Position numbers and translations under genes: made by a program
Assembly: GCA_964344485.1 (NCBI GenBank)
Contig: CAYFNF010000003.1
Span: forward strand, 148,467-212,466
Length of the DNA: 64,000 nucleotides
From: an uncultured Gammaproteobacteria bacterium
GTDB lineage: Bacteria > Patescibacteriota > Patescibacteriia > UBA9570 > XYC2-FULL-38-9
Reading direction: 5' to 3'
Notes under the pieces: model-generated
What the model saw: the letters and a program-made list of their open reading frames with translations, nothing else
Databases searched by the model: none
Told to the model about the DNA's origin: nothing
Part shown: positions 3,468 through 48,015 of the stretch, piece by piece
How the letters are laid out: the number at the start of each line of letters is the position of its first letter
How positions within the stretch are numbered: position 1 is the first letter of the stretch

Positions 3468-3468
3468 A

Positions 3469-7327: not shown

Positions 7328-8551
7328 TTATTTCATTCTGAACTTCTTCCATGGGCTCCACTTGCTCCACCCAGCATCATTGCCGCATCGCACTCTGAAA
7401 CGATAGTACTGTTTACTCTTCACGAATTTCTTTGACTTTTTCAGAAATTTTGAATTAGTAGTAAGTCCTTTAAACTTTTTCACAGATGTAAATTTCCCGT
7501 TTGCTTTCTTTTTTTGTAACACTGCTTGATAGGTATCGGCATTTGCTTTCGCTTTCCACCACAACTTTGCTGACTTCTTCTTTTTCTTTTTCACTTTCAG
7601 ATGCTTCTTTTTCTTGATCTTGCTTGGTGCAGTGAGTTCATTAATTGTAAAATTTGCTAATGCATAATCTTCTGCTGAATCTGCTGCGCCATCAGTGGTC
7701 ATAGCAACACTATGCGCTCCGGCAATCCCAGCAACAGCATCACTGATCAATAAATCATACGCATCTTCATTACTTTTAGCTACGTCGGTAAGGACCTCAC
7801 AACTGAGTACAGAATTCTGACTGAGGTCATACGTTAAAATCTCATCTAAAGTGCCTTTAGAATTGTCTATAGTTGCATCAGTTAGATCCCACCCTGATTC
7901 ACTAGGCGATTTATTCTCTGCAACAAACACAATGCTTAGCTCTTCTCCGCTAGATAATCCACGGCTAAGCGTAAAATAGAGTTCTAGATCCAGTGTAGAG
8001 CCGGCGGTTGCCTCAGTTGGAGAAACTGATAACGAACCTACGGCATTTCCAAGGCCTTGGATGGACACAGTATCATCAGTCATGGTTGCATTCGCACTTT
8101 CACTCAGAGGCTGCGTTGTAACTCCAAAGCGAATTGACGTTGCCTCATCAGGATTCACCGCATCTGCTAGGGTGACGGTATACTTGTCTGCGGGGAGTTT
8201 TGCGGATAACGTTAATACAGTGCCCCTGCCATCAAGCACTGGTGAAAAAATAAAATTGGAGTTGCCAATAGATCCCTCTGATGAAGGAACCACATTTTGT
8301 AAATTTACATACTCCGGACCGTCGTCTTCTGTAGAGAAAATTGAGATAGTTGAACCGCTGGGTAGATCTACGTTAGTAGTGACGGCGATAGTATACGTCT
8401 CGGTTTCCCCAGCAATAGAAGCTGTTGGTGCAGCGGATACTTCTGATATATTTGCATCTTCCGTTCCTTGCATGCTAAATGCTTGCGCAGATGATGGCGC
8501 GTACACCAGGACTGCTGCGATAGCGAGTGTAAGCAAGATTGTTTTTTTCAT
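7328..8551 (-). CDS. Secreted surface protein with a poly-lysine linker and a C-terminal fibronectin type III-like domain
   Basis: Signal peptide MKKTILLTLAIAAVLVYAPSSAQA. The body is S/T/D/E-rich. The linker is KIKKKKHLKVKKKKKKSAK. The FN3-like end is LWWKAKANADTYQ...YYRFRVRCGNDAGWSKWSPW. Confidence 0.7.
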   Translation of the reverse strand: MKKTILLTLAIAAVLVYAPSSAQAFSMQGTEDANISEVSAAPTASIAGETETYTIAVTTNVDLPSGSTISIFSTEDDGPEYVNLQNVVPSSEGSIGNSNFIFSPVLDGRGTVLTLSAKLPADKYTVTLADAVNPDEATSIRFGVTTQPLSESANATMTDDTVSIQGLGNAVGSLSVSPTEATAGSTLDLELYFTLSRGLSSGEELSIVFVAENKSPSESGWDLTDATIDNSKGTLDEILTYDLSQNSVLSCEVLTDVAKSNEDAYDLLISDAVAGIAGAHSVAMTTDGAADSAEDYALANFTINELTAPSKIKKKKHLKVKKKKKKSAKLWWKAKANADTYQAVLQKKKANGKFTSVKKFKGLTTNSKFLKKSKKFVKSKQYYRFRVRCGNDAGWSKWSPWKKFRMK

Positions 8552-9925: not shown

Positions 9926-11320
<1,395 letters not shown>

Positions 11321-13196: not shown

Positions 13197-13892
13197 TTAT
13201 GCAATTTTTGTGCCAAGTACCTTCTTTATTAGCACCGCACCATACATGATTGCGGTCATGATGGCCAATAGAATTGCGGCGATACTCAGAGCAAAAGCAA
13301 CAAATGAATTAATACCAGCGAGCTGAGGGATAAACACTGATGCAAGAATATATAGCACAAGAATTACTGCAACATTCTTAATGTCTTGTTTGGACGGAGC
13401 GAACGTTGCTAGGACGTTAATGAGACAAAACAGATAGACCCAGAACTTCCATGTGGCTAGCGCTGCCCACTGAAAGAACAGTGCTGGATGAATCATGCTT
13501 TTTACCAGTGTATACGTTGCGCTCCAGTCGCTATTCATTGCCACACGCATGAGCTCTTTGAAATCCATCCATGTTAGAGAGAAATACCAAAATGAAAGCA
13601 CTATCAAAAGTACGGTACCGACAAACAGCGGTGCTAAAGAGATGATGAATGCTCCAAGCAACGGAATGGGTGACTTTCCATGACGCACATGACCTTCTTG
13701 CCACCCGACTTTAAACTCAGATACAGGTGCGCGCATGAGCTTACATCCAATATAATGTGATGCTTCATGCACAAATACGCCCGGCCATAGCAGCCAACGA
13801 AAGATCTTGAGCCGCAACAACTGCAAATTGAAGAAGTAGCTCACTACCTCTATTCCGATGAACAAACTGACGACGATAATAAGAGGAATCAT
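13197..13892 (-). CDS. Polytopic membrane protein with an HExxH motif (putative membrane metallopeptidase-like)
   Basis: 231 aa with about 6 TM segments. VFVHEASHYIGC lies next to TM2. Confidence 0.55.
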   Translation of the reverse strand: MIPLIIVVSLFIGIEVVSYFFNLQLLRLKIFRWLLWPGVFVHEASHYIGCKLMRAPVSEFKVGWQEGHVRHGKSPIPLLGAFIISLAPLFVGTVLLIVLSFWYFSLTWMDFKELMRVAMNSDWSATYTLVKSMIHPALFFQWAALATWKFWVYLFCLINVLATFAPSKQDIKNVAVILVLYILASVFIPQLAGINSFVAFALSIAAILLAIMTAIMYGAVLIKKVLGTKIA

Positions 13893-14469: not shown

Positions 14470-14488
14470 AGTTATTTTGCTAATGATG

Positions 14489-14573
14489 CGGTGGGAATGG
14501 GATTTGAACCCATGGTACATTTCTGCACACACGCACTCCAAGCGTGCGCCTTAAACCACTCGGCCATCCCACC
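14489..14573 (-). tRNA. tRNA-Ser (anticodon GGA)
   Basis: An 85-nt class II tRNA: GGTGGGA/TG/GCC-GAGTGGTTTAA-GGC/G/CACGC-TTGGAGT-GCGTG/long variable arm/ATGGG-TTCAAAT-CCCAT/TCCCACC/G. Confidence 0.9.
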
Positions 14574-14670: not shown

Positions 14671-17600
14671 CTATTCACTAGCCTGTTCCGCGCTTGGAAG
14701 CACAAATTCCATAATCGCGGCTCTCCTATATGTGTTGTAATCACTCAGCTTTCCACCGAATGAATCACTATATTGATATTCGTTCTGTGTACGTGCAATA
14801 TACATATCTCGCTCCTCTCCTTTGTTCTCTTCAGTATCTCCGCGAACAGTTGCACCGCGACGCGCCGCTTCTTCATAGAATGCTTGTAACGCCTGTTCGC
14901 ACCATACATGTGGAGTGATGGACACACTCGCTCCACAACTCTCTGCTTTATTAAATGCGAGCTGAGCAAATGCTTGATAGACACGCGGATGATCGATGGT
15001 TTTGTATGCAGGTTCAAGGAATAGTGTCGGATGCTCACCTTCTGTATTAGTTTCTCGAATCTGAGTAATACGCTCTACACATCGCAGTAGTATCTCGCCT
15101 TCTTCACCGCGTACATTAATTCCTTTTTTATTTGCATCCACAACATACGACAATAAGCATTCGTTGTATGCACCGCGCTTCCAGCTCTGGCACGTTTCAG
15201 ATGGTTCGGTTCCTAGTCTAATCATGCGTAATTCATCATCAAACTCCTCAGCTGTGACCGTTCCAACTTCGCTGACCGTGAATGGACGGTATAGCTGGTT
15301 CACGTCCGACGCGACTTGATGAAGACTCGCTGCTTCGCACTGCTGTTGCAAGCGCATGGCCATTCGCAGGACTGCACCACGTTCCAGAGGAGTGGCAGTA
15401 AGCTGCTCTCTGACTGCAGCGAGTTGGCGGGCGATCGCTGTAACTGCATCATCATCCGTGCGATCTGCGGTGAACTCTGCAAAATGTGCATCTGCATCAT
15501 CGAGCAGCCCGAGTGCAGCGGAACGTTGCTGCTCTAATAAGTCCTGCTCTTCATCTGAACGCTCTACTTGCACAGCGTCTTCGGTCTCAATCCAATGTTC
15601 ACGCTGATCACCTAGGAAACCAATCTGATCTTCTGCGCACTCATGCGTATATTTCCAAGAGGCAAAATCTCCCACTACATGATGTTCAATCACGCTACGC
15701 AACGCCTCGACTGGATCATCAACTTTCTTTGCTTCAAATGAGAGCAATAGGGTAGTACTCATATCTAGGAAGCCTGAACGATCATGCGCATCAATATTAT
15801 CTGCAATCGCATGACCGATCTCTGCGCTCACTCCGAGACGATCAGTAAGTACCGTAGCAACTCGGTCTCTGTAGTGTTCAGTTGGGCCAACCAATCCAGT
15901 TAATTCTTGCTCTTCTTTTATCAGTGCTCGTCGTCTGGTGCGAATTGCTTTACGTGTAGGTGGATCCAATCTCGGTAGAATCAATTCGATATTAGCAAGC
16001 GCTGCGCGAATTGCCTCTAAACGTTCAGTTGGATCATAGTCATACTCCATGCATCCAAACCGTTCTAGCATTTCAAACGAACGAAACATCTCTCGAACAC
16101 GTCGTGGATCATCACGTGTATCACGGTAACGCTGCATCATATCCTGAAGAACAGCAGCTCCTTGTTCACCTTGTGCTCGCATACGCAGGAATCCTTGCAA
16201 CAGAATACCCCTACTTTGATGAGATCTCCGTACTTTCTTGTGCGCCAAGAGCCGGCGAAAATTATCCATTGCATCCCCTTCTTCCTGTCCAATTGCTTCT
16301 TGCCCTATTTGTTCCATAAACTCAGGGTTAGCAGCGAGCGCAGCAGTTAAACCATGTATAGTCCACCACGGCGTCATGTCTCTGGCTTCTAGTACTCTAC
16401 GCTCTACTTCTTCGCGCTGTCGAAGTAGTATTCCGACAGAAGTACCATCCGGTAACAGCCCGGCCACAAATGCACTGCGCTCAGGCATGTCCATAAAGCT
16501 AAACATCTCTGGTACTTCAGTGTCAGAGAACAGATCTGCGAGTTGAGCGCGCGCTACAAAGAACTCGCCTTTTGACAGCAAACGAGTCCGTCCATATACA
16601 TCACTTGTTTCTTGATAGAGTACAGAATCTTCATCTACCATCTGTGCGATTAATGCACGTTCAATGCCAGGCATCGCTTCTAAATGCGCGCGTCCTTCCT
16701 CTGACTGAGCCAATCGTCTAATAATAGAAAATATCAGCACCGTGGTATGACCGGATCCAGCATAGAAGATATGCTCTAATAGCGGCTCGATAGCTTTAGG
16801 ATTTCCTAGTTTTCCTAGGTCCATCGCTGCATCTGTACCGTGGCCAGATTCGCGTCCACCTGGACGAATCATATCCCGCATCAGAGTTTCAATGAGAAAC
16901 TCTTCGAACTCTTCGAACTCTTCATCAGTCGCAATAGCTGCGACTTCAGGGTCGTCACGTAATAGACGTATGCGCTGTGTTCCACGTAGAATTTTTATCA
17001 GCTCATCATTGTTCCCGACATGTTGAATTGCGTCATCACGCAACGATCTACGTTGATGTTTAATAGCTGCGGTAGGGCGATCGTACGGTACAACTTCACG
17101 GTTAAAGTCACGATGCGCTCGCCAGTCAGCAAACAAACGCAAGAGATTCCTGGTTTGTTGGTTTGGATTCTCCCAGTTCGATCGGTCGATATCGCTGGGT
17201 GCCCACTCTACAGCCCTTCTCAGCTCTCTGTCTCTATCGTGCAGCATCATAAATCGATCACCAGGGCGGCGCGGAAATTCATCAGTAAGTGCACGGCCAG
17301 CTCTATCCTCCCATCCATTAAAGGTCTGCACTCGCTCACCACCGATGCGCAGATCATCTGGGTGCCTGCTATTACCATCATTCGTCAGTAGCGCGACGAC
17401 CGCTTGTTCCCACTGTCTGATCTGCGGTTCAAGGCCAGGATGCCTCTCTAATAGCTCATCCACAATTGGTTGAATATGCATTTCTCGTAACCGAGCATTA
17501 ATACGATCATGCAGCTCTGTACTCCCCGCAAGGGCATAGAGCTGCTCCTGTTGCTCGACGATCTCGGCTGTACGCTGCTGTGCTTCAGCATACAACCGAT

Positions 17601-18210
17601 CATCAATCACTTCTCTTGCACTCTCTCGTGCTGAACCCAAACTACGACGTCCTTGTCGCGATGAAACACCCTGGTCTGTTTGCAGATCTGCAACTGCTTC
17701 ACGAATGAGCTCCACAATGCGTTCATGTGCTTGCAATTGCGCTACTGCACGTTTGTGTGCTCTACTACATGTTCTGACCAACCAATGTGCTCCTGATAAC
17801 TGACGGGTACGAGCCTGCATCGCTCCGCTTATAACTGCAAGATTGCTTTCAAACGTACGTTCAAACGGCAATTCCACCACAGTAACGTCATACATGCTTA
17901 AGGTGTCAAGTGCTATCTCCTCCCATTCTGTTAAGAATTGAGCGTACTCCTGCTCTATTGCCTGCAATTCCTGTTCGAGCGCTTCTAGGCTTGCTTCAAG
18001 GTGCGCGTTCATTTCATCGTAACTCTCGCCTTGGAATACTTCACGTGCAGCAAGTAGTTCTTCTACACGCTGAGCCACTCCTTCTATGCGTTGCTGCACC
18101 CCTTGAAATCGTTCAAGCATAGCTCTGCCACGTTCAACAAACTGCTCATGATGTTCATGGTACTGAGCCTCTATTGGTGTTTGGTGATTTTCGCGAATAG
18201 GTGCATTCAT
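14671..18210 (-). CDS. Giant hypothetical protein (1179 aa), acidic and helical, with no signal peptide
   Basis: Uninterrupted ORF whose ATG lies 4 nt after the stop of the 1849-aa gene. The only hint is one HEAT/PBS-lyase-like stretch (DLGKLGNPKAIEPLLEHI). No TM segments. Confidence 0.75.
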   Translation of the reverse strand: MNAPIRENHQTPIEAQYHEHHEQFVERGRAMLERFQGVQQRIEGVAQRVEELLAAREVFQGESYDEMNAHLEASLEALEQELQAIEQEYAQFLTEWEEIALDTLSMYDVTVVELPFERTFESNLAVISGAMQARTRQLSGAHWLVRTCSRAHKRAVAQLQAHERIVELIREAVADLQTDQGVSSRQGRRSLGSARESAREVIDDRLYAEAQQRTAEIVEQQEQLYALAGSTELHDRINARLREMHIQPIVDELLERHPGLEPQIRQWEQAVVALLTNDGNSRHPDDLRIGGERVQTFNGWEDRAGRALTDEFPRRPGDRFMMLHDRDRELRRAVEWAPSDIDRSNWENPNQQTRNLLRLFADWRAHRDFNREVVPYDRPTAAIKHQRRSLRDDAIQHVGNNDELIKILRGTQRIRLLRDDPEVAAIATDEEFEEFEEFLIETLMRDMIRPGGRESGHGTDAAMDLGKLGNPKAIEPLLEHIFYAGSGHTTVLIFSIIRRLAQSEEGRAHLEAMPGIERALIAQMVDEDSVLYQETSDVYGRTRLLSKGEFFVARAQLADLFSDTEVPEMFSFMDMPERSAFVAGLLPDGTSVGILLRQREEVERRVLEARDMTPWWTIHGLTAALAANPEFMEQIGQEAIGQEEGDAMDNFRRLLAHKKVRRSHQSRGILLQGFLRMRAQGEQGAAVLQDMMQRYRDTRDDPRRVREMFRSFEMLERFGCMEYDYDPTERLEAIRAALANIELILPRLDPPTRKAIRTRRRALIKEEQELTGLVGPTEHYRDRVATVLTDRLGVSAEIGHAIADNIDAHDRSGFLDMSTTLLLSFEAKKVDDPVEALRSVIEHHVVGDFASWKYTHECAEDQIGFLGDQREHWIETEDAVQVERSDEEQDLLEQQRSAALGLLDDADAHFAEFTADRTDDDAVTAIARQLAAVREQLTATPLERGAVLRMAMRLQQQCEAASLHQVASDVNQLYRPFTVSEVGTVTAEEFDDELRMIRLGTEPSETCQSWKRGAYNECLLSYVVDANKKGINVRGEEGEILLRCVERITQIRETNTEGEHPTLFLEPAYKTIDHPRVYQAFAQLAFNKAESCGASVSITPHVWCEQALQAFYEEAARRGATVRGDTEENKGEERDMYIARTQNEYQYSDSFGGKLSDYNTYRRAAIMEFVLPSAEQASE

Positions 18211-18214
18211 ATAT

Positions 18215-21200
18215 TTATGTTGTTATCCTACCATATCCCATTACTGTTGGAAGTAGTCTCATTGGGCTAATATCTCGATATCGTGTCTTGCCTGGTTCCC
18301 CGGTTGGCTCTTCCATGCGAGCAAGATACGCCCCGGTTGCTAGAGACTTCATAAATTTCTCGAACCCTTCATGGATTGCGCGTCCTCCTTCAGAGATAAT
18401 CATCAATACCTCTTTATACTTCTCACCGGTTTCCAAGGTGCCTGACACCACCGCAGCAACACGTTCTAACTGTTCTGCTTCAACATCAGGCACAAACGTG
18501 CGAATTCCCTCTTGCACTAACGCCGGGTTCTGGAATTGTGCGAGCATGCCTAAGAATATCTTCTTAATGCTATCAATCTCTGTTTGCGCGATCTCGCCCG
18601 CGCTTCCAAGGTCCAGCTCTCCGAGTTCACCATCTGGCGTGACCACCCAATTTCCTGGGTGCGGATCTGCTTGAAATCGTCCTTTCACGAATATTTGATA
18701 CATGAGCGCGTCAAACGCTTGTACGTGGATATCTTCTAATCGACCGACGAGACCTTCATACGCAGTCATTTCATCTGGCTGCAAGTCGTATTTCGCTTGA
18801 AAATCTGCCAAGGTGCGTCGCCCCATTGCTACGTCAGTTAATTCTCGTAACGACAACCCTCGAATCTCCTCTTCTAATATATGTTCTTCACTGTGATCTA
18901 GGATCTCTGCAATGCGCACCGGGAACAGACGCGCCATAGCTGCTTGTGGGTAGTCTTCCATAGCCGCAGCCACTGCTTCATGATTCCGTACTTCTTCTTG
19001 GAAGTTTGCCTCATCACGTAACCAACGACCGATACGATCTTCCAAACCATCAGGTACAGTAAAATCTGCTTCGCGAAGATTTCCCATAATCCTATTCAGT
19101 ACCCGAAGGTCTTCCCCGAGATGCTTTGCAATAGATGGTCTTCGCACTTTTGCAATCACACGCTGTCCGTCTTCTCTAGTCGCACGATAGACTTGTTTAA
19201 TTGACGCAGCAGAGATTCGTCTGTCCATAGAAACCAGCCGATGTGGATGGCCTTCTTCAAACTGTCCCACTGCTCCCATCATGTGCATGCTGGCAGTACG
19301 GTGGAACGTTTTTGCGTTCTGTTGGAGCTTGCGCAATTCCTCGGCGATGTCATCAGGGAGCAACGGGGTACCGTCCGCGTTCTTTTCTTCAGCTAAGACT
19401 TGGCCTGCTTTAATACCGACTGGCCCGACCGCTTCTAGTAATCCACGCAGGCGTTCTCCAATTGTAGAGTCTCCTTGTCCGCGTAGTACTTCCATCATCT
19501 CGATGTAGACTTTTGCACGTCGGAATGGACCGTACTCTTGTAATGCAGTTGTAAAGATCACTCGTACTGCTTCTCTTCCTCTCTCTCCCAGTGCTTCTGC
19601 TGCTTCAGGTGGAAAGACTCGCTCAAACGATCGATCAATAAATTCTTGGAATATCGCTTCGTCTTCTTCTTCGCGCGGGTCCATGACACCGTTCTCTCCA
19701 AAGAGCAAACGGATATAGGTCTCTTCGCGTTCCTGTGGAGTGGCTGCAAAGAGTAGGTCTGGCATGTCTTCCACTGAGCACTCATTATGTCCACCGAATG
19801 CACGTAATATGCGCGGAGGTTGATCAGTCTCTCCGATAGTCCATAATACAAATTCTTTTCTGTCTTCACGGTTTAAATATGCTAAAACCGAATTGATTTT
19901 CTCTACTGTAGATTGTTGTGATAGTTCTGCGTCCTCGGTGGTGCGTCGTTGTACATCAAAAAGACGGCGTGTGATTTCCCGTGCTTGTGGAGGAGTGCGG
20001 ACTACGCCAGTATCTCCAAGTTGCAATAGCGCTTCACCCCGTACATGTGATGCGTGTGGGTAGAGCTCACTGATACGATCCAATTCGCTCGCAAAGGTCT
20101 CTTCCCCTGTTGCAAGGTGTTCTCGGAATAATGAATTCGCTCTTCGTGACCAAAGCTGCTGATGCGCTTGATCTGCAAACAGTGGAATGGTTCGTTGATA
20201 AAACGTATATAGTTCATGTGCAACATCTGGCTGAATCTCGTTCCCTTCTGGTGCAACAACTTCGTGTCCGTTCGTAGTAAGGCCACGCTCTTGTAGTAAT
20301 GCTGTTTCTATGGCGCCTAATAATTCATCACGATAATTCGTCACCTCTGGAATGAGTTCTTGAACGCGGTCCACTCTTCCAACTGCGGGGATCGAGGGAT
20401 CCGCTGGTAATTGAGTGTAGTCTATATAGAACTCTAGTGCATTGTACCGCTCTGAGTATTTGCGGTCCCCTCGGAATATCGTAGTAAAGCTCGGCGCAGA
20501 AGGATCATACGCTGCAGCATCAGATTCGATATTACGGGGGATCAACTCACTAGTGCTTTTTGAATAATGCGACTCTCGATCTATCGGGTGATAACGTTGA
20601 ACGAATCCACTCTCCACCACCTCATCTGGAAGCGCTCCTGGATGATACACTCGAAAGATGTCGCGAAGCTGCGTATCACGTGTGGAAACTGGAACAAACT
20701 GCGTTATAGCTGCAACACTCTCATCTTCTGATCGCTCATCTGGTTCCACATGCCATCTGCCCCATTGCCATATAATGCCGTGCGCTTCTAGTGCTCGTTG
20801 CATAATTGAATATGTAACCCCGCGATCAATACGATCCACGCCCCATTCTCCACTTCTATCTTCGGCTTGTTTGCATTTCCCTTCTATCTCTACGCAATAC
20901 CGTGCGAGCTCTTCTAGCTCTGGCTGAGTGAGTGCATCAAATGCTGCTTGTAAATCTGCAGCGTGTGGTGAAACGCTGGTATCAAAATTAATCGCGCCGT
21001 CTCGCAGCACTCTCTTCAGCGGCGCAACGATGGAATCGCCTGGATTAAGCACCATATACAACCGAACATACTCAATAGACAGCGAAATGCTATAGATAGC
21101 AGCTGCTTTATCGCGCTCTGTATAATCCTCAACTTCACGTCTGTCGATACAGTCGCTATCCCACTTCGGTACCACATCAAGTGCTGCCTCTAAAAAGTCT

Positions 21201-23764
21201 AACTGCTCTTGCTCTGACATACGTGCTCGTCGCTCTGCATCATTCCATGCTCCTCGAATGTGCGTCCATATTACTGAGGGATCTTCTCCTTCTAGAAAGC
21301 GGAGCATCTCTGCAGGTGGAACAGAATCAGAACATGATGATATAATCGCATCCAGAAACTCTTGTCGAGCTCGTTTAGATTCATACGTCACTGCAGGGTA
21401 TAGATGAAGTATCGGTGCGGCTCGCTCAACTAAGTCATCGTATGATGCTATCCCGACTTCATGCAACAATCCAACTAACTCAGCTTGATGCAGAGAAGCA
21501 ACTTCAGCATGGGAAACCTGTAAAATACTATGCATCTGTTCTAGGCGTTCTTGAGGGGTGAGTGTTTGAAACCCTTCTCTCTCAGCTCGTGCTTGGATCG
21601 CACGAGTTACCACGTGCTCCCATAATACATAGATAGCATCAGCACCGCGGAGAGGTGCGTCAAATCCTGTTTCTTCTAAAAATAATTCGTTCGCTGAGGG
21701 TCTCGCTTCTATAGCTGGTTGTGGAAAGTGGCGTAACCACTGTTCACACTCCTGTTGTGAAAGTGTTGCAACAAAACCTTCAAGTTCCGCGGGTTGATAT
21801 CCTCTTGCAGATAACTTCATGGCGAGTTCAGCAACCAACTGTCCAAGTGTAGCGGCGTGCTCTGCTGAAAGTAATGCGCGACCCTCTGCGCTAGTAGTAT
21901 ACCGCTGTGCAAACCGCTGAGCGAGTTCCGGAAGTATACGATCAACAGTAGGAGAAGGAATGGTCCGTGGTTCTAAGGCTGGCATGGATTCTCCTGTGGC
22001 AATTGCTTGTCCTAACGCGGCAAGCGCTTCATTGTCATCACTATCAAACGCGTTTCGCGCTTCCATCATGAGAACTTGCCTGATGACTGCTACTCTTCCC
22101 TCTGGAGTTGAGACATCATCTGCTCTACGTAACTCTTCAGGTAGATAATGCTCTCTTGTGAGGTCGACTGTTAAGACACCTTGAGTGAGTTTGTCCAGCT
22201 GCATCTTCCAATTGCGTGCTTGGTCATGAAAAAATGGGGTACTGCTTTCACTGCAGAGAGTCATAAGCTCTTCAGGCTCTGCTGCACGCACTTGCTCTTT
22301 TACTGCATCATTATATTCATATCCGTCTTCTTTCGGCCCGTCGATATCTGCGTTAGAAATAAGCGTGTCTAGCGTGTCAGCGGACACACCATCAACTACT
22401 GCTTCTAGCTGTGCACGAAGATGCTGTACTTTACGTTGTAGTTCAATACGTGCTGCAAGCTTTGCTGCTTTTTCATGATCGTCCGGGTCTTCATCAGCAG
22501 CTGCTTGCGCTTGTGGAATTTGCTCACTGAGAAACCGTAGTGTTTCATCATATGCTTTGATTACTTCCGCGCGTTGCCGCTGCAGTCGCGTGTGCAGCGA
22601 TCGTTCAAATTTCTCTTCGTCATACGGCCCTTCCTCTACTTGTGCCCCAAAATCAAATTCTCTATCCATATATCGAGAGAGTTTATCCGGTGCTACCGAA
22701 GCCCTTGCCAAATACTCTGCTCTTCCTTCAGAGTAATGGTAACCGTAATATGCGGCATGTAGTGCATTGAGCACTTCTGCAAAATTGTGAAGCACAATCC
22801 TCTGTGCATAGTGTTTTCGCATTCGCTCCTGCTCTGCTGCGTGATGAAATAACGCGTGACGATCTAATACAAAAGCAGCAACACCAACTTCAACCGCATC
22901 ATGAAAACTCTCAGCTTGAGCGATCATGTCTTCAATATGGTCTAAACCCTCAGCACGGTACAATCGCGTGCCAGGTCGGCCGGGTGGTTCATCGATAAAT
23001 GCACGTTGCACTTCTGCTGGAACAACGGTCGGCTCTTTTTCAATATTCGGTAGCCAGGTGTCTGGGCTCTCCACTAACTCCACGAGCTCTCTATATCTAT
23101 CAGCGGATCGAGGGTGGGATGTTCCAATAGGCAGATCATTCGATAGGCTTAATAGAAACTGGATAGCTGCTAATCCCTCACGTGGATTATATCCAGCTTG
23201 TGCAAGTGCGATCAGTCCACCACGGTCAGCGTCGTATTCCGCATTCAAGCGGCGCTGCTTCTCATCGTGATCTGGATAGTCTTCATGAACGACGCCTTCT
23301 TCAGTATGCTGATCAATATGTGTACTTTCATGCGCTGCCACCATAGCGATCATGTCTTCGGTCATTGGTCGACCGTGTCGTTCGCACCAGCGCCCAAGTT
23401 CTCGCAGCAATCCCATGTATGTGTAGACGTGCGCGTGCCCGCTTACGACAAACGCATTAATTCCGGGTGAATCAATTGCAACCACATCAGTGGCGGGAAT
23501 CGATAACTGCCGCTCAATTCTTGCTTGAATGCGTGCCAGCATCTCTTTTCGCGGATCATCATCATCTAGAATTCCAAAACGCTGCTCCAATTGATAGAGC
23601 ATTCGTCGTAAATACGCTTCTGTTTGGTCTTGCCTACTTTGTGCTTCTGCAAGCCCAATTATTTCTACTCTTGGCGGTTCATCATGATCAACTTCAGGAA
23701 CTTCAGCAATTGAACGTGCTGGTCGTGGTAGTCTGGATTCTGATGCTGCAGCGTGTGAGTTCAT
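18215..23764 (-). CDS. Giant fusion protein (1849 aa): N-terminal M48-like zinc peptidase motifs and a C-terminal UbiB/ABC1-type atypical kinase domain
   Basis: The N-terminus has SPGINAFVVSG...MIAMVAAHESTHID (HExxH at 23318-23332) and EYDADRGGLIALAQAGYNP, the M48 pattern. The C-terminus has AASIKQVYRATREDGQRVIAKVRRPSI and FQADPHPGNWVV (about 18650-18676), the ABC1/UbiB signatures. A TATAAT box at 23770-23775 lies 5 nt upstream of the ATG. Confidence 0.8.
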   Translation of the reverse strand: MNSHAAASESRLPRPARSIAEVPEVDHDEPPRVEIIGLAEAQSRQDQTEAYLRRMLYQLEQRFGILDDDDPRKEMLARIQARIERQLSIPATDVVAIDSPGINAFVVSGHAHVYTYMGLLRELGRWCERHGRPMTEDMIAMVAAHESTHIDQHTEEGVVHEDYPDHDEKQRRLNAEYDADRGGLIALAQAGYNPREGLAAIQFLLSLSNDLPIGTSHPRSADRYRELVELVESPDTWLPNIEKEPTVVPAEVQRAFIDEPPGRPGTRLYRAEGLDHIEDMIAQAESFHDAVEVGVAAFVLDRHALFHHAAEQERMRKHYAQRIVLHNFAEVLNALHAAYYGYHYSEGRAEYLARASVAPDKLSRYMDREFDFGAQVEEGPYDEEKFERSLHTRLQRQRAEVIKAYDETLRFLSEQIPQAQAAADEDPDDHEKAAKLAARIELQRKVQHLRAQLEAVVDGVSADTLDTLISNADIDGPKEDGYEYNDAVKEQVRAAEPEELMTLCSESSTPFFHDQARNWKMQLDKLTQGVLTVDLTREHYLPEELRRADDVSTPEGRVAVIRQVLMMEARNAFDSDDNEALAALGQAIATGESMPALEPRTIPSPTVDRILPELAQRFAQRYTTSAEGRALLSAEHAATLGQLVAELAMKLSARGYQPAELEGFVATLSQQECEQWLRHFPQPAIEARPSANELFLEETGFDAPLRGADAIYVLWEHVVTRAIQARAEREGFQTLTPQERLEQMHSILQVSHAEVASLHQAELVGLLHEVGIASYDDLVERAAPILHLYPAVTYESKRARQEFLDAIISSCSDSVPPAEMLRFLEGEDPSVIWTHIRGAWNDAERRARMSEQEQLDFLEAALDVVPKWDSDCIDRREVEDYTERDKAAAIYSISLSIEYVRLYMVLNPGDSIVAPLKRVLRDGAINFDTSVSPHAADLQAAFDALTQPELEELARYCVEIEGKCKQAEDRSGEWGVDRIDRGVTYSIMQRALEAHGIIWQWGRWHVEPDERSEDESVAAITQFVPVSTRDTQLRDIFRVYHPGALPDEVVESGFVQRYHPIDRESHYSKSTSELIPRNIESDAAAYDPSAPSFTTIFRGDRKYSERYNALEFYIDYTQLPADPSIPAVGRVDRVQELIPEVTNYRDELLGAIETALLQERGLTTNGHEVVAPEGNEIQPDVAHELYTFYQRTIPLFADQAHQQLWSRRANSLFREHLATGEETFASELDRISELYPHASHVRGEALLQLGDTGVVRTPPQAREITRRLFDVQRRTTEDAELSQQSTVEKINSVLAYLNREDRKEFVLWTIGETDQPPRILRAFGGHNECSVEDMPDLLFAATPQEREETYIRLLFGENGVMDPREEEDEAIFQEFIDRSFERVFPPEAAEALGERGREAVRVIFTTALQEYGPFRRAKVYIEMMEVLRGQGDSTIGERLRGLLEAVGPVGIKAGQVLAEEKNADGTPLLPDDIAEELRKLQQNAKTFHRTASMHMMGAVGQFEEGHPHRLVSMDRRISAASIKQVYRATREDGQRVIAKVRRPSIAKHLGEDLRVLNRIMGNLREADFTVPDGLEDRIGRWLRDEANFQEEVRNHEAVAAAMEDYPQAAMARLFPVRIAEILDHSEEHILEEEIRGLSLRELTDVAMGRRTLADFQAKYDLQPDEMTAYEGLVGRLEDIHVQAFDALMYQIFVKGRFQADPHPGNWVVTPDGELGELDLGSAGEIAQTEIDSIKKIFLGMLAQFQNPALVQEGIRTFVPDVEAEQLERVAAVVSGTLETGEKYKEVLMIISEGGRAIHEGFEKFMKSLATGAYLARMEEPTGEPGKTRYRDISPMRLLPTVMGYGRITT

Positions 23765-23832
23765 GTATGATTATAACAAATAAAAATATCACAAAATAGT
23801 GAAAAAGTCAATGGAATCCTCCAATACAATCA

Positions 23833-26800
23833 TTATGCAGCAGCAGCTGGCGGCTCGGGTTGCTGACGATGTCGATGATGGCTGAACCATGCTATACCAA
23901 CTAAGAATATAATGACGATTCCAATGTTAATCATCACCAGCATGGTGGTGCTTGAGAGGCGATTCTTCTCTTCAATCACAAACCGCGTGATCTCGACCTG
24001 GTCAGATTTCACACCGTTTACTTCGGTTTGAGCAAAAACGACGTGATCTCCTTCACCGAGCAACTCTGCTGGAACCGTAATACTCCATTTACCGTTGGTG
24101 TCTACTTGCGCGACTTTTACTAATGGGTCTGAATAGATCGTCAGAATTGCCACAGCAGACATCTCTCTATACTGCTCAGCAATCTCTCCGGAGATAGTAA
24201 TCTCGTTCTTCTGTTCTTCGACTGTGCCGCCGAATAATCGTCTTGTTGCATCAATAATATCCCACTGCTGAACTTGCGTATAGGTGACGGTCCCATCATC
24301 TGATACCGTCGGTTCGATTGTAGTGCTATCTTGCTGGAACTCTATATCCGCAGTGTCTTGCAGCTGTCCAGTCTCGGTGGTCTGCAATTCTTCTCTTTGC
24401 TGCTTGGTCAGCGGCACGACTTCATCTGTATATGTATACGGATTCTCTGGCGGTTGTTTGACTCCATCCTCAGCATATTGTGTTTTTATTAGCTCTTCAA
24501 ATTTCTTTACGTTCACTACAACCACATCTGGAAGGCCGGTGTCGGTTGAACCCCCTTGGATTGGGTTGGTGCCGTACTTCACTTCATCACTATCTGATAC
24601 GCCGTCGTCATCAGAATCCGTGTCTGTTGGGTCAGAACCCAAATCCACTTCGTCGGAATCGCTTACCCCATCTTGATCTGAGTCCGCGTCTTCTGGATCA
24701 GTACCTAGCTCTTTCTCTTGTTCATCAGTCAGGCCGTCTCCGTCACTATCGGTCTCAGCTGGCTCGGTGTCAGTTCCTTGGTCAGGGCCTGGGTCTGTGC
24801 CCTGGCTCGGATCGCCGGTGTCAGTGTCTGGAGTATCAGTAGAAGGAGTTTCTTGAGGGGTGGCAGGGGCTACGGGTACGCTCACAGGAGCACTTACTGG
24901 TGCTGACACAGTAAAGGTGATTTCATTCGAAGTAGTCTCTGGATAGCCAGCTTGTTCAGAAGTGACAGCGTATGCAGTATGCGTGCCTGTAGATAGTGCA
25001 GATGGACGACATGCAACAGAGCTGGTCTCTCCACCACCAGTTGCAGTAGTATCGCAAATTCTCTGCCCATCAACATAGATTTGGGTATAAGCACCAGTAC
25101 GTGCTAATAGAGTAATCCATGGTCGGTTATATGATGTCTGCGCGTCCACCACAACTTGTTGCATCACTGCTGCAGGGTATGGGGTTGCGCGTACAATAGT
25201 CTGTGGAGTAAATACCTTTATCACAGTATCTTTTTTCGTATTCACGACCTTTACCTTGATCGCATTCGCTCCAATTGATAGTGCGGTGGTTGGTGTGCCC
25301 TGATATGAAATCACTGGACCAGTGTCGCTGGTAATAGCAGCAGTTCCGCTCAACGTACCGTTTACGAACAGTTGTACTGCAACATCATCCACTGAGATAT
25401 TTCCGATATAGACGTTACCGAAAAAGACCGGGTTCTTACTAAACGTCACATTCGAAGTCAATTTACTTCGCTCCTCTTTTGGATAGATATGAAATCGATC
25501 TGACACTACAGAAGATCCGACCGTATACCGGACACTGGATGTCTTTCCCACATTCCCTTTCTTATCTTCGATATTTGCCTCAGACGTATGTTTGTCGTAA
25601 TTCTTCTGGATCTGCGAATCTACCTCCCATTCTCCTTGCGCGTCTGTGGTGTCAGAACCGTCTAACTCACCTTCGGTATATACAGAAACTTCAGACTCTG
25701 TTTCAGCAGTTCCACTAAATGAAACGTATTGGTTGTAAACAATGTCATTTTGTTCTGGCTCTTCGATTACTGCTGCAGGCGGGCCGATTGAGAAACTCGC
25801 GGTCTTCTCCCACTCTGTGGAGCTGGATCTACTAGCGGTCTTCACTTTTGTGTACAGCTCCCAGAGTCCGCGCTTCAGTGTAAACTCTGTTTCTGCTGTG
25901 CCGTTACTGCCGACCTGTTCTTCATTGATCTTCTCTGCGCCGTTCTTTACGCGCACAAATTTAAACACCACCCACTGGCCAGTGGTTCCGGTTGCTGATA
26001 GCTCTACCTTCAGACGACCGGTATCCTCCTGTGCACTCAGTCGATGTACGCTCGAAGGATCACTTCGCAACTGCTCTCCATTTACTGTTAGTGCGGTGGG
26101 TAACAGTGATGACGCTGATCCTTCCTGTGTAGTGAATGAGTCTACTGAAGAGTTCGATGTATTACTACTCGCATCCGCGCTCACTACCTGATAGTAATAT
26201 GTAGTGCTGCTTAAAAGCCCTGATACAGTCACTGAATGGCTCTTTGTTAATCCACTAGTTGTTTGTGACTGCGGAATTTGCTCAGTCTTTCCATATCGTA
26301 CTTGTGATGTTGCTTTTTCATTCGTGGTCCAAGTAATAACCGCGGATGTAGAACGGCGAGTGACTTGAATATCTGAAATAGTGGGCGCCGAAAGGTCTCC
26401 AGTATCTGTGGTTGGGATTACTGACCCTGAAGTAAACTGAGATGTATTGTTTGATGAGTCTGTTAGCGTTGCAGTGACTTTATAGTTAGAAGCATATGAT
26501 TCTAGAGTGCTCTTGGGAACATCAACGCTCCATGTTAAACTCGTGACCGCTGCTTCTGTTATATAGACCTCGCCTTCATTATTCCGGTCTACAAAGACCT
26601 CCACTGTTCCGTCACTAGATGCAGTACCCGAGACAGTGTATGTATCTCCTTGCAAAGAAATTGCACTGATCACTGGGGTAGCAAGCCCCTCATTTGCTCC
26701 ATCAATTAGATTAATTCCACTTGAGGAGTTGTTATAGATAGAATTCTGTGTTACTAAATTGTATTTAGTTCCACTTTGAGAGATGTTCAATCCATCTGCA

Positions 26801-29202
26801 TAGGCGTTAGTAACTATGTTGCCCGGTCCAATGGTGTTGCTCTGACTAGTATTGGAGAGTGTTACTGCGTTCCACTGACACGGAAGCGGATCACCGTTTG
26901 TATCGATGCCGATCCTGTTTGATGAGAGAGTATTGTTTGAAGAGTCAGCAAATACCACACAGCGGTCTATATTGCCGATCACATTATCACTAATGGTGTT
27001 CCCAGTGCTGTTCGCTCGAATGATAATTCCATATACGTCATCCTGAGTAACAGGTTTCGTGATACCAATCCTATTACTGGAAATCACATTATTAATTCCA
27101 CCTTGCATTAGAATGTTCATGACATTGCCCGCAATAGTGTTGCTACCATTGATAGTGTTAGAACTGCCAGTGAGTTCAAGGCCGACAGCATTCTGCATCA
27201 CCGTTTGTTTACTCACTGCGAGGCCAATAGTATTCCCAGTGGCGGTGTTACTGTCTCCTTCAATCCATAACCCCACGCCGCTATGGTTAGAGATGAAATT
27301 CGTAGATATAGAATTACTATCGCTTTCAGTATCAATCACAAGACCGTTTGTGGTGTTTCCGATATTCGTATCACTTGCAGATACACCGATGTAGTTATCT
27401 GAGAGTGTGTTTGAATCAGAGGAATAGATAGCAATGCCCGATTCATTAAAACCAATGACATTAGATTGCGATGTTCCAATTCTACTATTTGATACTCCAG
27501 TAAATAGAATTCCGGTTCCAGTGTTCCCTCGATCGACTAGTGAAGCGTTGGTTCCAATATAATTACCCTCTATCGCTAGCTGAGAGATGTTTCCTGCGCT
27601 GCTATTTGCCTCAATACCATTTGATAGATTTCCAGAGATAGTATTCTTCGAAATCGATACCGCATTCGCGCTAATGGCAATAGAGATGCCATCCTCACCA
27701 TTCGAAACCGCTGCTCCACTTGAATCCAATCCAATAGTATTCTCAGTTATTGTGACATCGCTATCGTTTTCCAAGTAAATCCCATTTGCATCATTTCCTG
27801 AAATCACGTTATTCGGACCAATCGTTGTGTCTGCCCCACCAAAGATTCCGTCAGTATTTGGAATGGCTGTTCCAGAACTGTTTAATCCAATATAGTTCCC
27901 GGTGATTGTTCCAGTGCTCTGGTTCACTACTACCCCTGACTGGGTATTACCTGCAATAGTGTTGTTCGAAAGTGTATTCGCTCCTTGAAATGTTACACCG
28001 TTATTATTTTCAACTGCGCTCGTGCCGTTACTATCTACTCCGATATTATTCTTATTCACCGTGTTCCCAGATGTAGTTGCTTCTAAGAAGATACCTGACT
28101 TTGTATTGCCTGAAATTGTATTGCCAACGATCGTGTTATTGTTTCCGGTTACTCGAATACCTGAATCCCCATTAGTGGATTTTGTGGAACCGTCTGCAGT
28201 TATACCTATATAGTTCAAACCGATAGTACTGCTACTGCCTCGCAATTCAATTCCGTTGCTCGTATTTCCAGAGATGATATTGCGGAACGCTTGGTTGCTG
28301 CTATCTCCAATAGTGATGCCAGATACCGTCGCTGCTATATTAACTCCGTTTATCCCATTAGCGGTGATAGTGTTAGAACGCAATACATTAGTATTTGAAT
28401 TCTCGATAAAATTCACTCCCTGCTCAGAATTATTCGATATCGAGTTACCGGTTACCGTGGTGCTGGTTGCAGTGCCCCCAAAATAGATTCCGTTACGATT
28501 GCCTTTGATTGTGTTGCCTGAAATGGCATTATTACTCGATGCGACCTGAATGCCTTCACCCCCTGCAAAGCCTTCTATCGTGAAATTTGATATCTGACAA
28601 TTATCCGCTCGGATAGCTAGCCCATCATTATCTTGAGCTGCTGACAGCGCGCTCCCTTCAATGCCAACTCTGTTATCCCCATCGATTATAAGTTCATCAG
28701 TAATCGCGGGTAGCACACTTGAGGTTACTGCTATCTTTCCGTTTAATGAACTATTGAAACTGATCACGTCAGCACCAAGACTCGCGTTTGCATCGAGTAT
28801 AGCTTGCCGCAAAGATCCCGCACCGCTGTCATTCAAGTTTGACACAGTGAAATTAGCAGCATACGCGACTTTGATCTGATTCACCGGTAGCACTACAGAT
28901 GAAATTGCATACAAGAGAATAACCACTGCAACAAAGAACGCGGTGACTAACCCGCTGCGTAGTCGTATCTTTTTTCTGCGACTGTGATGCTCATGATACG
29001 AAAAACCCCAGATCCCTTTATGGTCTTGGTCATATAATGTACAGAATGTGTGCTGAGGTGGATAGAAAATGATATAGAAATATTCGTACAGCACGTATGC
29101 TATATATAGTGGAACGAGCGCAATGCCTAAAAGGACACGAATAATGAACGGTCGGGGTTTGGCTTGTACGTAGCACTCAATATGATTGATGGTTTTTTTC
29201 AT
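23833..29202 (-). CDS. Giant cell-surface protein (1789 aa): parallel beta-helix repeats, FN3, Ig-like regions, TSP3-type Ca-binding repeats and a C-terminal TM anchor
   Basis: The N-terminus has hydrophobic anchors. About 750 aa of (I/V)xGNxIxxN repeats (SGNTISGN, IAGNT...) match the NosD/CASH beta-helix type. The FN3-like stretch is APTISDIQVTRRSTSAVITWTTNEKATSQVRYG. The TSP3 repeats read DSDGDGLTDEQE, DSDQDGVSDSDE and DSDDDGVSDSDE. The C-terminal TM is MLVMINIGIVIIFLVGIAWF. Confidence 0.85.
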   Translation of the reverse strand: MKKTINHIECYVQAKPRPFIIRVLLGIALVPLYIAYVLYEYFYIIFYPPQHTFCTLYDQDHKGIWGFSYHEHHSRRKKIRLRSGLVTAFFVAVVILLYAISSVVLPVNQIKVAYAANFTVSNLNDSGAGSLRQAILDANASLGADVISFNSSLNGKIAVTSSVLPAITDELIIDGDNRVGIEGSALSAAQDNDGLAIRADNCQISNFTIEGFAGGEGIQVASSNNAISGNTIKGNRNGIYFGGTATSTTVTGNSISNNSEQGVNFIENSNTNVLRSNTITANGINGVNIAATVSGITIGDSSNQAFRNIISGNTSNGIELRGSSSTIGLNYIGITADGSTKSTNGDSGIRVTGNNNTIVGNTISGNTKSGIFLEATTSGNTVNKNNIGVDSNGTSAVENNNGVTFQGANTLSNNTIAGNTQSGVVVNQSTGTITGNYIGLNSSGTAIPNTDGIFGGADTTIGPNNVISGNDANGIYLENDSDVTITENTIGLDSSGAAVSNGEDGISIAISANAVSISKNTISGNLSNGIEANSSAGNISQLAIEGNYIGTNASLVDRGNTGTGILFTGVSNSRIGTSQSNVIGFNESGIAIYSSDSNTLSDNYIGVSASDTNIGNTTNGLVIDTESDSNSISTNFISNHSGVGLWIEGDSNTATGNTIGLAVSKQTVMQNAVGLELTGSSNTINGSNTIAGNVMNILMQGGINNVISSNRIGITKPVTQDDVYGIIIRANSTGNTISDNVIGNIDRCVVFADSSNNTLSSNRIGIDTNGDPLPCQWNAVTLSNTSQSNTIGPGNIVTNAYADGLNISQSGTKYNLVTQNSIYNNSSSGINLIDGANEGLATPVISAISLQGDTYTVSGTASSDGTVEVFVDRNNEGEVYITEAAVTSLTWSVDVPKSTLESYASNYKVTATLTDSSNNTSQFTSGSVIPTTDTGDLSAPTISDIQVTRRSTSAVITWTTNEKATSQVRYGKTEQIPQSQTTSGLTKSHSVTVSGLLSSTTYYYQVVSADASSNTSNSSVDSFTTQEGSASSLLPTALTVNGEQLRSDPSSVHRLSAQEDTGRLKVELSATGTTGQWVVFKFVRVKNGAEKINEEQVGSNGTAETEFTLKRGLWELYTKVKTASRSSSTEWEKTASFSIGPPAAVIEEPEQNDIVYNQYVSFSGTAETESEVSVYTEGELDGSDTTDAQGEWEVDSQIQKNYDKHTSEANIEDKKGNVGKTSSVRYTVGSSVVSDRFHIYPKEERSKLTSNVTFSKNPVFFGNVYIGNISVDDVAVQLFVNGTLSGTAAITSDTGPVISYQGTPTTALSIGANAIKVKVVNTKKDTVIKVFTPQTIVRATPYPAAVMQQVVVDAQTSYNRPWITLLARTGAYTQIYVDGQRICDTTATGGGETSSVACRPSALSTGTHTAYAVTSEQAGYPETTSNEITFTVSAPVSAPVSVPVAPATPQETPSTDTPDTDTGDPSQGTDPGPDQGTDTEPAETDSDGDGLTDEQEKELGTDPEDADSDQDGVSDSDEVDLGSDPTDTDSDDDGVSDSDEVKYGTNPIQGGSTDTGLPDVVVVNVKKFEELIKTQYAEDGVKQPPENPYTYTDEVVPLTKQQREELQTTETGQLQDTADIEFQQDSTTIEPTVSDDGTVTYTQVQQWDIIDATRRLFGGTVEEQKNEITISGEIAEQYREMSAVAILTIYSDPLVKVAQVDTNGKWSITVPAELLGEGDHVVFAQTEVNGVKSDQVEITRFVIEEKNRLSSTTMLVMINIGIVIIFLVGIAWFSHHRHRQQPEPPAAAA
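24582..24750 (-). repeat. Three thrombospondin type-3-like acidic calcium-binding repeats (coding)
   Basis: The DxDxDGxxDxxE motif is repeated three times in the translated sequence of the giant surface protein. Confidence 0.6.
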
Positions 29203-40544: not shown

Positions 40545-40549
40545 TTCGT

Positions 40550-40578
40550 TGACGGTTAGGCCATTTTTAGTATATAAT
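40550..40578 (+). promoter_or_regulatory. Candidate promoter TTGACG-(17/18)-TATAAT for the 40605 gene
   Basis: TTGACG at 40550-40555 and TATAAT at 40573-40578, about 26 nt upstream of the ATG. Confidence 0.35.
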
Positions 40579-40604
40579 ATCAACACATTCATCGCAATAG
40601 CACT

Positions 40605-47811: not shown

Positions 47812-47903
47812 GGAGAGGTGGCTGAGTGGTTGAAAGCGACGGATTGCTAATCCGTTATATCGGTATTTAGCCGGTATCGAGGGTTCAAATCCCTCCCTCT
47901 CCG
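47812..47903 (+). tRNA. tRNA-Ser (anticodon GCT)
   Basis: A 92-nt class II tRNA: GGAGAGG/TG/GCT-GAGTGGTTGAA-AGC/G/ACGGA-TTGCTAA-TCCGT/23-nt variable arm/GAGGG-TTCAAAT-CCCTC/CCTCTCC/G. Confidence 0.9.
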
Positions 47904-47927
47904 CAGGACCGATTTTTTTGTACGTCT

Positions 47928-48014: not shown

Positions 48015-48015
48015 C

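Follow-up and report, generated by a model that had tools for sequence, protein, structure and literature searches.

A gene on the minus strand of the 64-kb window (the whole stretch of DNA from contig CAYFNF010000003.1 that was analysed) encodes an 1849-aa protein in which an M48 zinc-metallopeptidase domain and a UbiB/ABC1 atypical kinase-like domain are joined by two helical modules. By its profile matches, the protein belongs to the soluble subgroup of the M48 peptidases and to the UbiB/ABC1 family, and is not a UbiB equivalog, MABP-1 or a known defence protein. With high confidence, it is a two-enzyme protein that carries a conserved cassette of ~1,750 aa. The open reading frame (ORF), proposed earlier from the DNA sequence without database searches (the original prediction), was confirmed to run uninterrupted on the minus strand. 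The gene and the parts of its product are as follows (HMM, hidden Markov model).

18215..23764, minus strand: whole gene for the M48-scaffold-preABC1-UbiB protein, 1849 aa; uninterrupted ORF with an ATG start.
23027..23584, minus strand: M48 zinc-metallopeptidase domain, residues 61-246; Pfam, PDB profile matches and a family HMM (273 bits).
23318..23332, minus strand: HExxH zinc-binding/catalytic motif, H145-E146-S-T-H149; invariant in family alignments.
23225..23239, minus strand: E176-Y-D-A-D180 motif; invariant in the family and aligned with 3c37 and BepA.
20492..23026, minus strand: all-alpha scaffold, residues 247-1091, ~850 aa; AlphaFold model.
19562..20491, minus strand: pre-ABC1 module, residues 1092-1401, ~310 aa; profile search and sub-profile HMMs.
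18272..19561, minus strand: UbiB/ABC1 atypical kinase-like domain, residues 1402-1831; Pfam PF03109 and Foldseek match to COQ8A.
19400..19411, minus strand: KxGQ signature of UbiB proteins, K1452-A-G-Q1455; conserved across the family.
19148..19150, minus strand: K1539, the Lys position of V-A-x-K, with a putative role in ATP binding.
18650..18667, minus strand: catalytic loop D1700-P-H-P-G-N1705; DxHxGN motif.
18611..18613, minus strand: D1718 of the DxG metal-binding motif; motif match, conserved.

The M48 domain was matched by the Pfam model Peptidase_M48 (PF01435) with 30.6 bits (E 3.6e-7, cut-off 20.3), and distant cassette members scored 29-40 bits against the same model. The hallmarks on which the original prediction was based (NAF, AAHESTHID and EYDADRGG) were all found, the NAF edge-strand motif lying at residues 103-105. 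A single-sequence search of the PDB with the domain gave no match. Following construction of a profile from seven family N-termini, matches were obtained to 3c37 (E 8.1e-7, residues 69-235), BepA (7.6e-5) and an HtpX fragment (9e-3), and the alignment to these solved structures covers the NAF strand, HExxH, E-x-x-A-D, GYNP and the THP...R motif. E176, which aligns with the Glu of E-x-x-A-D in solved M48 enzymes, is the predicted third zinc ligand. Judged by its motifs, the domain has all parts of an M48 catalytic unit and belongs to the BepA/3c37 type, which has no transmembrane (TM) helices. The TM helices of the membrane-embedded M48 subgroup (HtpX, Ste24, Oma1) are absent, no conserved hydrophobic segment being present in any family member, and neither a signal peptide nor a TM segment was found in the 1849-aa protein (Kyte-Doolittle hydropathy peaks at 1.29 in 19-residue windows).

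NAF, HExxH, ExxAD, GYNP and THP...R are common to this protein, BepA, Geobacter 3c37 and PGM48, as is a catalytic domain of ~190 aa without TM helices. Unlike BepA, the window protein has no signal peptide and is hence not periplasmic. Compared with the soluble M48 enzymes, it lacks a recognisable tetratricopeptide repeat (TPR) domain, carries a C-terminal extension of ~1,600 aa and has a short spacing, 27 aa, between HExxH and ExxAD. The nearest stand-alone relatives of its M48 domain are peptidases of ~270 aa, mostly from metagenome-assembled genomes (MAGs) of Bacteroidota (L006-L051), which share an A[RQ]AGYNPRE motif. Such peptidases are widespread in Chitinophagaceae, and one locus (L035) holds two of them in tandem.

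At the other end of the protein, residues 1516-1741 were matched by the Pfam ABC1 model (PF03109) with 93.5 bits (E 1.5e-26, cut-off 22.9). Defining features of the UbiB family are an Ala-rich loop replacing the Gly-rich loop, the Lys of V-A-x-K, and the motifs DxHxGN and DxG. Here, the Ala-rich loop AASIKQV (residues 1519-1525) is located just upstream of K1539, and an ExxFxxExxN signature is also present. Two of the ABC1 motifs predicted originally, AASIKQVYRA (1519-1528) and ADPHPGN (1699-1705), were recovered as such, whereas the third, given as VAKVRRP, had to be corrected to VIAKVRRP around K1539. In COQ8, the Gln of the KxGQ motif positions water for ATP hydrolysis, and the conserved activity is that of an ATPase which both membranes with cardiolipin and phenolic CoQ-like lipids stimulate (bioRxiv 10.1101/149823).

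Residues 1091-1849 were modelled with AlphaFold on a 9-sequence alignment, resulting in a mean predicted local distance difference test score (pLDDT) of 84.9 and a predicted template modelling score (pTM) of 0.78. Foldseek comparison of this model with the PDB gave human COQ8A (7udq/4ped/5i35) at E ~1e-10 and target TM-scores of 0.65-0.71 (0.70 for the match at E 1.3e-10). Next came Rv3197 and MSMEG_1954 from mycobacteria, with kinases of the ordinary type far weaker. On the strength of this model, the C-terminal domain has a UbiB-type protein-kinase-like fold. By sequence, Rv3197 (MABP-1) is the solved structure with the strongest match (E 3.3e-10). The equivalog cut-offs of the UbiB models were failed (TIGR01982, 112.9 against 487.55; NF003404, 72.1 against 667), as was that of the MABP-1 model NF050082 (38.4 against 800), and no hydrophobic segment that could serve as a C-terminal membrane anchor was found past the kinase domain. 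Among ordinary ABC1 proteins, those that come closest are bacterial, stand-alone and ~550 aa long, with 28-31% identity and at most 94 bits. Among the window ORFs scanned, which covered part of the 64 kb, no ubi or men genes were found. In short, the C-terminal ~430 aa share the UbiB fold and all family signatures with COQ8A/ADCK3, E. coli UbiB, plant ABC1K proteins and Rv3197. The window protein differs from that family in having neither a TM anchor nor a mitochondrial or plastid context, in being fused to a protease with a cassette-specific helical module of 300 aa before ABC1, and in having its labelled close relative in a lineage from which electron-transport chains are reported to be absent.

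The region between the two enzymatic domains had been left unassigned. An AlphaFold model of residues 241-1401 (pLDDT 80.1, pTM 0.60) is all alpha-helical save for a few short hairpins. Foldseek searches of the PDB with the scaffold gave no specific fold match, only generic alpha-solenoids (IFT-A, CAND1, CRM1, karyopherins) at TM-scores of 0.09-0.2, and as modelled residues 247-1091 form a scaffold without a recognisable enzymatic fold. Its sequence is conserved only inside the family of ~1800-aa proteins (25-40% identity over 850 aa); spacer length is kept across the superfamily (median 927 aa, 10th-90th percentile 800-1135). The pre-ABC1 module, characterised by the motifs IPExTxYRD, LYPxxSxxR[DG]xxL, KKxFxLW and GxNG, always stands directly upstream of ABC1 and is common to ~75 much larger proteins; it is missing from all 66 stand-alone ABC1 proteins compared. 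It is predicted to pack onto the kinase fold, forming one compact unit with ABC1 in the model with a pTM of 0.78.

Homologues were collected by a word-indexed search of 5.8 billion proteins and by a HMMER profile search with residues 241-1401 against 1.84 billion representatives; one protein (P0004) was left out of the alignments behind the profile search and the structure prediction. The word-indexed search gave 10 relatives with 28-41% identity and lengths of about 1,730-2,330 aa, all carrying M48 and ABC1; one relative consists of a 1,236-aa ORF followed by an overlapping 572-aa ABC1 ORF. The profile matched 93 proteins, 16 of which align over the whole linker (residues 241-1401). The matches to ~75 proteins, up to 6,707 aa long, cover only the last ~200-280 profile positions, corresponding to window residues ~1090-1400. 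Using local sub-profile HMMs, the ordered cassette of M48, spacer, pre-ABC1 and ABC1 was detected in 71 proteins, and the window protein fits this order with the domain boundaries given above. The cassette occurs alone (~1,750-1,950 aa) or inside giant proteins such as P0097, in which M48 occupies residues 2146-2329, pre-ABC1 3302-3603 and ABC1 3607-4037.

Both active sites are well preserved: HExxH and ExxAD are intact in every detectable cassette M48 domain (73/73), and DxHxGN is present, by a strict regular expression, in 79 of the 91 cassette ABC1 domains. The cassette ABC1 domains were mutual best BLAST hits in 86 of 87 cases, and on this sequence comparison the cassette is a single clade. 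Pfam confirmed the combination of M48 with ABC1 in P0093, P0096, P0099, P0111 and P0113; extra domains were found in P0093 (HopA1-like and FHA) and P0111 (Metallophos). No TM-like segment was found in any stand-alone cassette member. Many giants have an N-terminal hydrophobic segment, and their TM-like segments lie outside the cassette. Two metagenomic loci have the cassette in two neighbouring ORFs that overlap, the halves staying together. The split falls after the pre-ABC1 module in L056 (10001..15417) and inside the spacer in L137 (5047..12151), and is due either to a frameshift or sequencing error or to a genuine two-gene form of the cassette.

The cassette is still rare, amounting to ~90 representative clusters out of 1.84 billion. 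A scan of genome contigs with the single window protein returned no relative, and a word-indexed search with the pre-ABC1 alignment returned no match, apparently owing to a limitation of the word index. Among the matches listed, a metagenome scan added one further cassette locus (L137) and otherwise gave generic ABC1 genes, and viral contigs contained only generic ABC1 genes and no cassette. In the IMG/VR viral contigs (L057-L136), at least 491 generic ABC1/UbiB genes were confirmed by tblastn, including genes in giant-virus MAG bins (GVMAG), and none of those among the matches listed has the pre-ABC1 module. Full-text literature searches yielded no paper on an M48-ABC1 fusion, nor on UbiB in the candidate phyla radiation (CPR), DPANN or Omnitrophota, and public annotations of the relatives read 'AarF/UbiB family protein' or 'hypothetical'. 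Within these searches, no description turned up of the M48-ABC1 combination, the scaffold or the pre-ABC1 module. Both domains proposed originally are thus upheld by profile searches at curated thresholds and by motifs, ABC1 by fold comparison as well, and the combination, then called unfamiliar, proved to be rare and, in the literature searched, uncharacterised.

A scan of species-representative genomes with an alignment gave one full-length locus, in a Ca. Peregrinibacteria MAG (L003), which is the only labelled close relative of the window protein, and one truncated contig; the other matches were stand-alone M48 genes of ~270 aa. In the wider cassette, several proteins are labelled as coming from Ca. 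Omnitrophota MAGs, including proteins of 4,600, 4,899 and 5,599 aa; a Ca. Woesearchaeota MAG contributes one partial protein, and another member carries just the label 'bacterium'. Most members being unlabelled, this taxonomic spread is provisional. The Woesearchaeota MAG protein (P0093, MBD3259442.1) carries HopA1, a Pseudomonas type-III effector family, at residues 23-124 and FHA at residues 330-391, both N-terminal to the cassette; its occurrence in an archaeal-labelled MAG reflects either cross-domain transfer or a binning error. Peregrinibacteria, Omnitrophota and Woesearchaeota are ultra-small, host-dependent or predatory lineages. The Omnitrophota giants ('Archaeovorins' and others) contain many copies of the cassette, inside proteins of 2,000-6,700 aa with extra domains and TM segments, whereas the window protein is stand-alone with 1849 aa and its labelled close relative is a CPR bacterium. 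Published descriptions of Omnitrophota giant proteins list glycosyl-hydrolase/transferase, C39, SecA and dockerin/TSP3 domains and leave M48 and ABC1 unmentioned (bioRxiv 10.1101/2023.11.21.568195; 2026 Omnitrophota preprint). Patescibacteria and DPANN have been reported to be without electron-transport chains (PMC7507113).

At one locus (L054, 13865..15478), genes for DoxX, VKOR and a DsbA-like protein adjoin a family member. VKOR normally uses a quinone. Its presence beside a family member is odd for a lineage thought not to make quinones, and may bear on the proposal that such cells handle scavenged isoprenoid quinones.

The immediate surroundings of the gene in the window comprise the following features.

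23783..23811, minus strand: promoter-like site TTGACT-17-TATTTT, TG-extended; consensus match only.
14671..18210, minus strand: downstream ORF, 1179 aa; begins 4 nt past the stop codon of the M48-UbiB gene.

The promoter-like site sits within the 68-nt gap 5′ of the ATG of the M48-UbiB gene, and TGTTATAAT is located directly ahead of this start codon. The 1179-aa ORF is probably co-transcribed with the M48-UbiB gene, because its start is only 4 nt past the stop. It gave no Pfam, NCBIfam or PADLOC match. With 1.7% Lys and 10.3% Arg, it is Arg-rich, Lys-poor and acidic like the 1849-aa protein, which is itself strongly acidic (net charge about -123). A relationship between the two was rejected, the sequences showing no similarity. 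Halophily was likewise rejected as the cause of the acidic composition, the housekeeping proteins of the window being Lys-rich and not unusually acidic. The 1179-aa ORF is missing beside homologues of the M48-UbiB gene in other loci and, not being conserved there, is probably outside the core unit.

Comparison of the flanks of seven loci gave housekeeping genes. The sole shared neighbourhood trait is proximity to dnaG-rpoD, found only with the closest relative (L001), which has its family member in the same dnaG-rpoD neighbourhood and an RpoD to which that of the window is 75% identical; a CPR origin of the window is deduced from this relationship. The window RpoD (9926..11320, minus strand) has an N-terminal extension of ~190 aa with 14.4% Lys, a pI of 9.7 and weak similarity to the histone-H1-like HC2 family. 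Directly upstream of the M48-UbiB gene lies a gene for a 1789-aa protein (23833..29202, minus strand) with right-handed beta-helix/NosD repeats, a domain resembling fn3/purple-acid-phosphatase-N and bacterial TSP3 repeats; these repeats make a surface location probable. In Omnitrophota, the giant proteins of the dockerin type are likewise marked by TSP3 repeats.

Further afield in the 64 kb, an ORF at 51210..52427 (plus strand) has a strong match to the TMEM43 family (187 bits) and is very acidic (pI 4.1). TMEM43 is best known as a eukaryotic nuclear-envelope protein. ORFs without a Pfam match at E<=1e-3 are located on the minus strand at 37602..40592 (996 aa), 7328..8551 (407 aa), 60913..62151 (412 aa) and 13197..13892 (231 aa); the 996-aa product, acidic and very poor in charged residues, may be a repeat protein or lie at the cell surface. 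Three tRNA-Ser genes (GGA, GCT and TGA) are present (14488..14573, 47812..47904 and 47928..48015), two of them adjacent, and tRNA-Ser(GGA) separates the 1179-aa ORF from the dnaG-rpoD block.

Order, spacing, co-occurrence and both active sites of M48 and ABC1 are kept at <25% identity, which argues for joint selection of the two domains. We tentatively favour, as plausible, a soluble machine of two enzymes, with the protease coupled to a UbiB module that responds to lipid and ATP, in place of a quinone-biosynthesis factor. By analogy with COQ8, the UbiB module would sense or act on membrane lipids or isoprenoid-type ligands with ATP, and the rigid scaffold would keep module and protease a set distance apart. 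Depending on nucleotide and lipid state, the M48 site would then be gated or supplied with substrates. The M48 enzymes Ste24, HtpX, Oma1, BepA and PGM48 cleave membrane-embedded, membrane-proximal or lipid-modified proteins; as in these enzymes, the M48 site would cut membrane-proximal or lipid-anchored proteins. The likely job in cells without respiratory quinones would be protein-lipid quality control at the envelope or membrane, or the processing of acquired membrane material.

A precedent for the pairing exists in phototrophs. On plastoglobules, the M48 peptidase PGM48 is found together with ABC1K3/K7, with which it is also co-expressed (bioRxiv 10.1101/2021.02.05.430006), and its cyanobacterial orthologue, sll1280, occurs with three ABC1Ks on the lipid droplets of Synechocystis (PMC12223511). 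In the plastoglobule/cyanoglobule pair, PGM48 (sll1280) and ABC1K1/3/7 (slr1919, sll0005, sll1770), the same two families thus share one lipid surface, are co-expressed and are co-purified. The fusion would be a single-chain version of this PGM48-ABC1K pairing. The two differ in that the plastoglobule partners are separate proteins on a lipid-droplet monolayer of prenylquinone-rich phototrophs, as opposed to one soluble chain in non-photosynthetic organisms.

The nearest model for the way in which such a protein would work is FtsH, which combines a nucleotide-hydrolysing module (AAA+ ATPase) and an HExxH zinc protease (M41) in one chain. FtsH serves membrane-protein quality control. There is no homology: the ATPase of the cassette is protein-kinase-like and its peptidase M48 instead of M41, its domains are ~1,200 aa apart and not adjacent, and oligomeric rings are not in evidence. 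Along these lines, a more specific proposal, which is unlikely in our view, is that the ATP- and lipid-driven UbiB ATPase, working without an AAA+ ring, would extract membrane-bound and possibly lipid- or prenyl-anchored substrates or present them to the M48 protease, the novel alpha scaffold fixing the distance; the cassette would then represent a new class of nucleotide-driven proteases.

Several observations weigh against a coupled, lipid-responsive protease. The M48 assignment was made with sequence profiles, and the structural models (residues 241-1401 and 1091-1849) cover the linker and the UbiB domain; coupling of the two activities is a deduction. Binding of membranes or lipids would be at odds with the very acidic chain, COQ8A binding membranes via a basic patch. 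All-against-all ORF comparison showed no conserved partner gene across the seven loci. An ABC1 gene was found within 10 kb of none of the 48 stand-alone M48 loci, mostly from Bacteroidota, so the Rosetta-stone link has no gene-neighbourhood support in that phylum. A minority of cassette relatives, some being fragments, have no detectable M48. Finally, taxon labels are available for a handful of members only, Woesearchaeota being represented by a single partial MAG protein.

A role as a host-directed effector or toxin, the cassette being delivered to or displayed towards a host or prey and attacking its envelope proteins or lipids, is conceivable but doubtful. The labelled members are from host-dependent or predatory ultra-small lineages, and the cassette is found inside giants of Omnitrophota, which as a class have been linked to predation (bioRxiv 10.1101/2023.11.21.568195). 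The N-terminal hydrophobic segment in many giants, the HopA1 type-III-effector-like domain and FHA at the N-terminus of P0093, and the position of the window gene next to the likely surface-exposed 1789-aa beta-helix/TSP3 protein point in the same direction. Delivery is difficult to reconcile with the absence of a signal peptide or TM segment from the window protein and all ~1800-aa members, and no conserved secretion-system genes were found near the loci compared. Moreover, the HopA1 match is a single case, and the TM-like segments of the giants lie outside the cassette, these proteins being described as membrane-anchored with the bulk cytoplasmic (2026 Omnitrophota preprint).

To a similar degree doubtful is an uncoupled fusion, with two independent enzymes carried on one scaffold and the UbiB part acting as a small-molecule-binding ATPase like mycobacterial MABP-1. 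Unrelated domains are tiled in the multi-enzyme giants of Omnitrophota (2026 Omnitrophota preprint), Rv3197 is the solved structure closest in sequence to the UbiB domain, and contact between both catalytic domains is hypothetical. Such independence is opposed by the order, spacing and active sites of M48 and ABC1, kept across a deep superfamily, and the NCBIfam MABP-1 model scores far below its cut-off.

A self-processing polyprotein, in which M48 would cut its own chain or the host giant and thereby free UbiB and other modules, appears improbable. The cassette is frequently embedded in multi-enzyme giants, the two-ORF split at two loci leaves neither half lost, and a study of giant genes proposed that peptidase domains (C39, S8) may cut the giants into smaller polypeptides (bioRxiv 10.1101/2023.11.21.568195). 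In the stand-alone form only ~60 aa precede M48 and ~16 aa follow ABC1, which leaves little to release, and a simple cleavable linker needs neither a conserved spacer length nor 25-40% identity over 850 aa. To our knowledge, M48 enzymes do not act as autoprocessing domains, which also counts against self-processing.

That the protein is a canonical UbiB, i.e. an accessory factor of ubiquinone or menaquinone biosynthesis with an extra protease domain, is very unlikely. UbiB models are its best NCBIfam matches, and the JGI auto-annotation of relatives reads 'unusual protein kinase regulating ubiquinone biosynthesis'. Its scores are far under the equivalog cut-offs, the C-terminal TM anchor is absent, even the nearest ordinary ABC1 proteins are only distantly related by identity, no ubi or men genes were seen in the scanned part of the window, and Patescibacteria and DPANN are reported to be without electron-transport chains (PMC7507113). 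Doubt about a role in quinone biosynthesis, already voiced in the original prediction, fits the failed equivalog cut-offs, the lack of a membrane segment and the Peregrinibacteria relative.

An anti-phage protease-kinase module acting by abortive infection in the manner of Lit is equally remote: two relatives have a weak precomputed match to PF10463 (Peptidase_U49/Lit) over the M48 region and defence proteins tend to be large, rare and patchy in their distribution, whereas the window protein has no PF10463 match at E<=1, neither it nor either neighbour has a PADLOC match, the neighbourhoods are housekeeping regions and not defence islands, and the cassette is absent from viral contigs among the matches listed.

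As an architecture, the protein combines two known enzyme families and two new helical modules in a new, conserved multi-domain arrangement. UbiB/ABC1 proteins are ancient, widespread and tied to human disease (COQ8A ataxia), and their role is debated, both as to ATPase or kinase activity and as to substrate. The fixed order and spacing of the cassette, with both active sites intact, is classic Rosetta-stone evidence for cooperation of UbiB with M48, and makes a testable hypothesis of what had been a vague co-localisation of PGM48 with ABC1K in plastoglobules and cyanoglobules. For the largely unannotated giants of Omnitrophota, the cassette is a defined, recurrent building block, found besides in Peregrinibacteria and, with a single MAG protein, in Woesearchaeota. 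Retention of the UbiB fold in lineages reported to be without respiratory chains points beyond quinone biosynthesis.

If the UbiB module does drive the protease with ATP, the fusion would reveal a working partner and a mode of action of UbiB/ABC1 proteins generally. It would also explain why M48 is found with ABC1 on plastoglobules and lipid droplets, and perhaps OMA1 with COQ8/ADCK in mitochondria. Quinone-less ultra-small symbionts would then keep the cassette for scavenged host membrane material. The cassette offers a concrete way into the matter of UbiB substrates.

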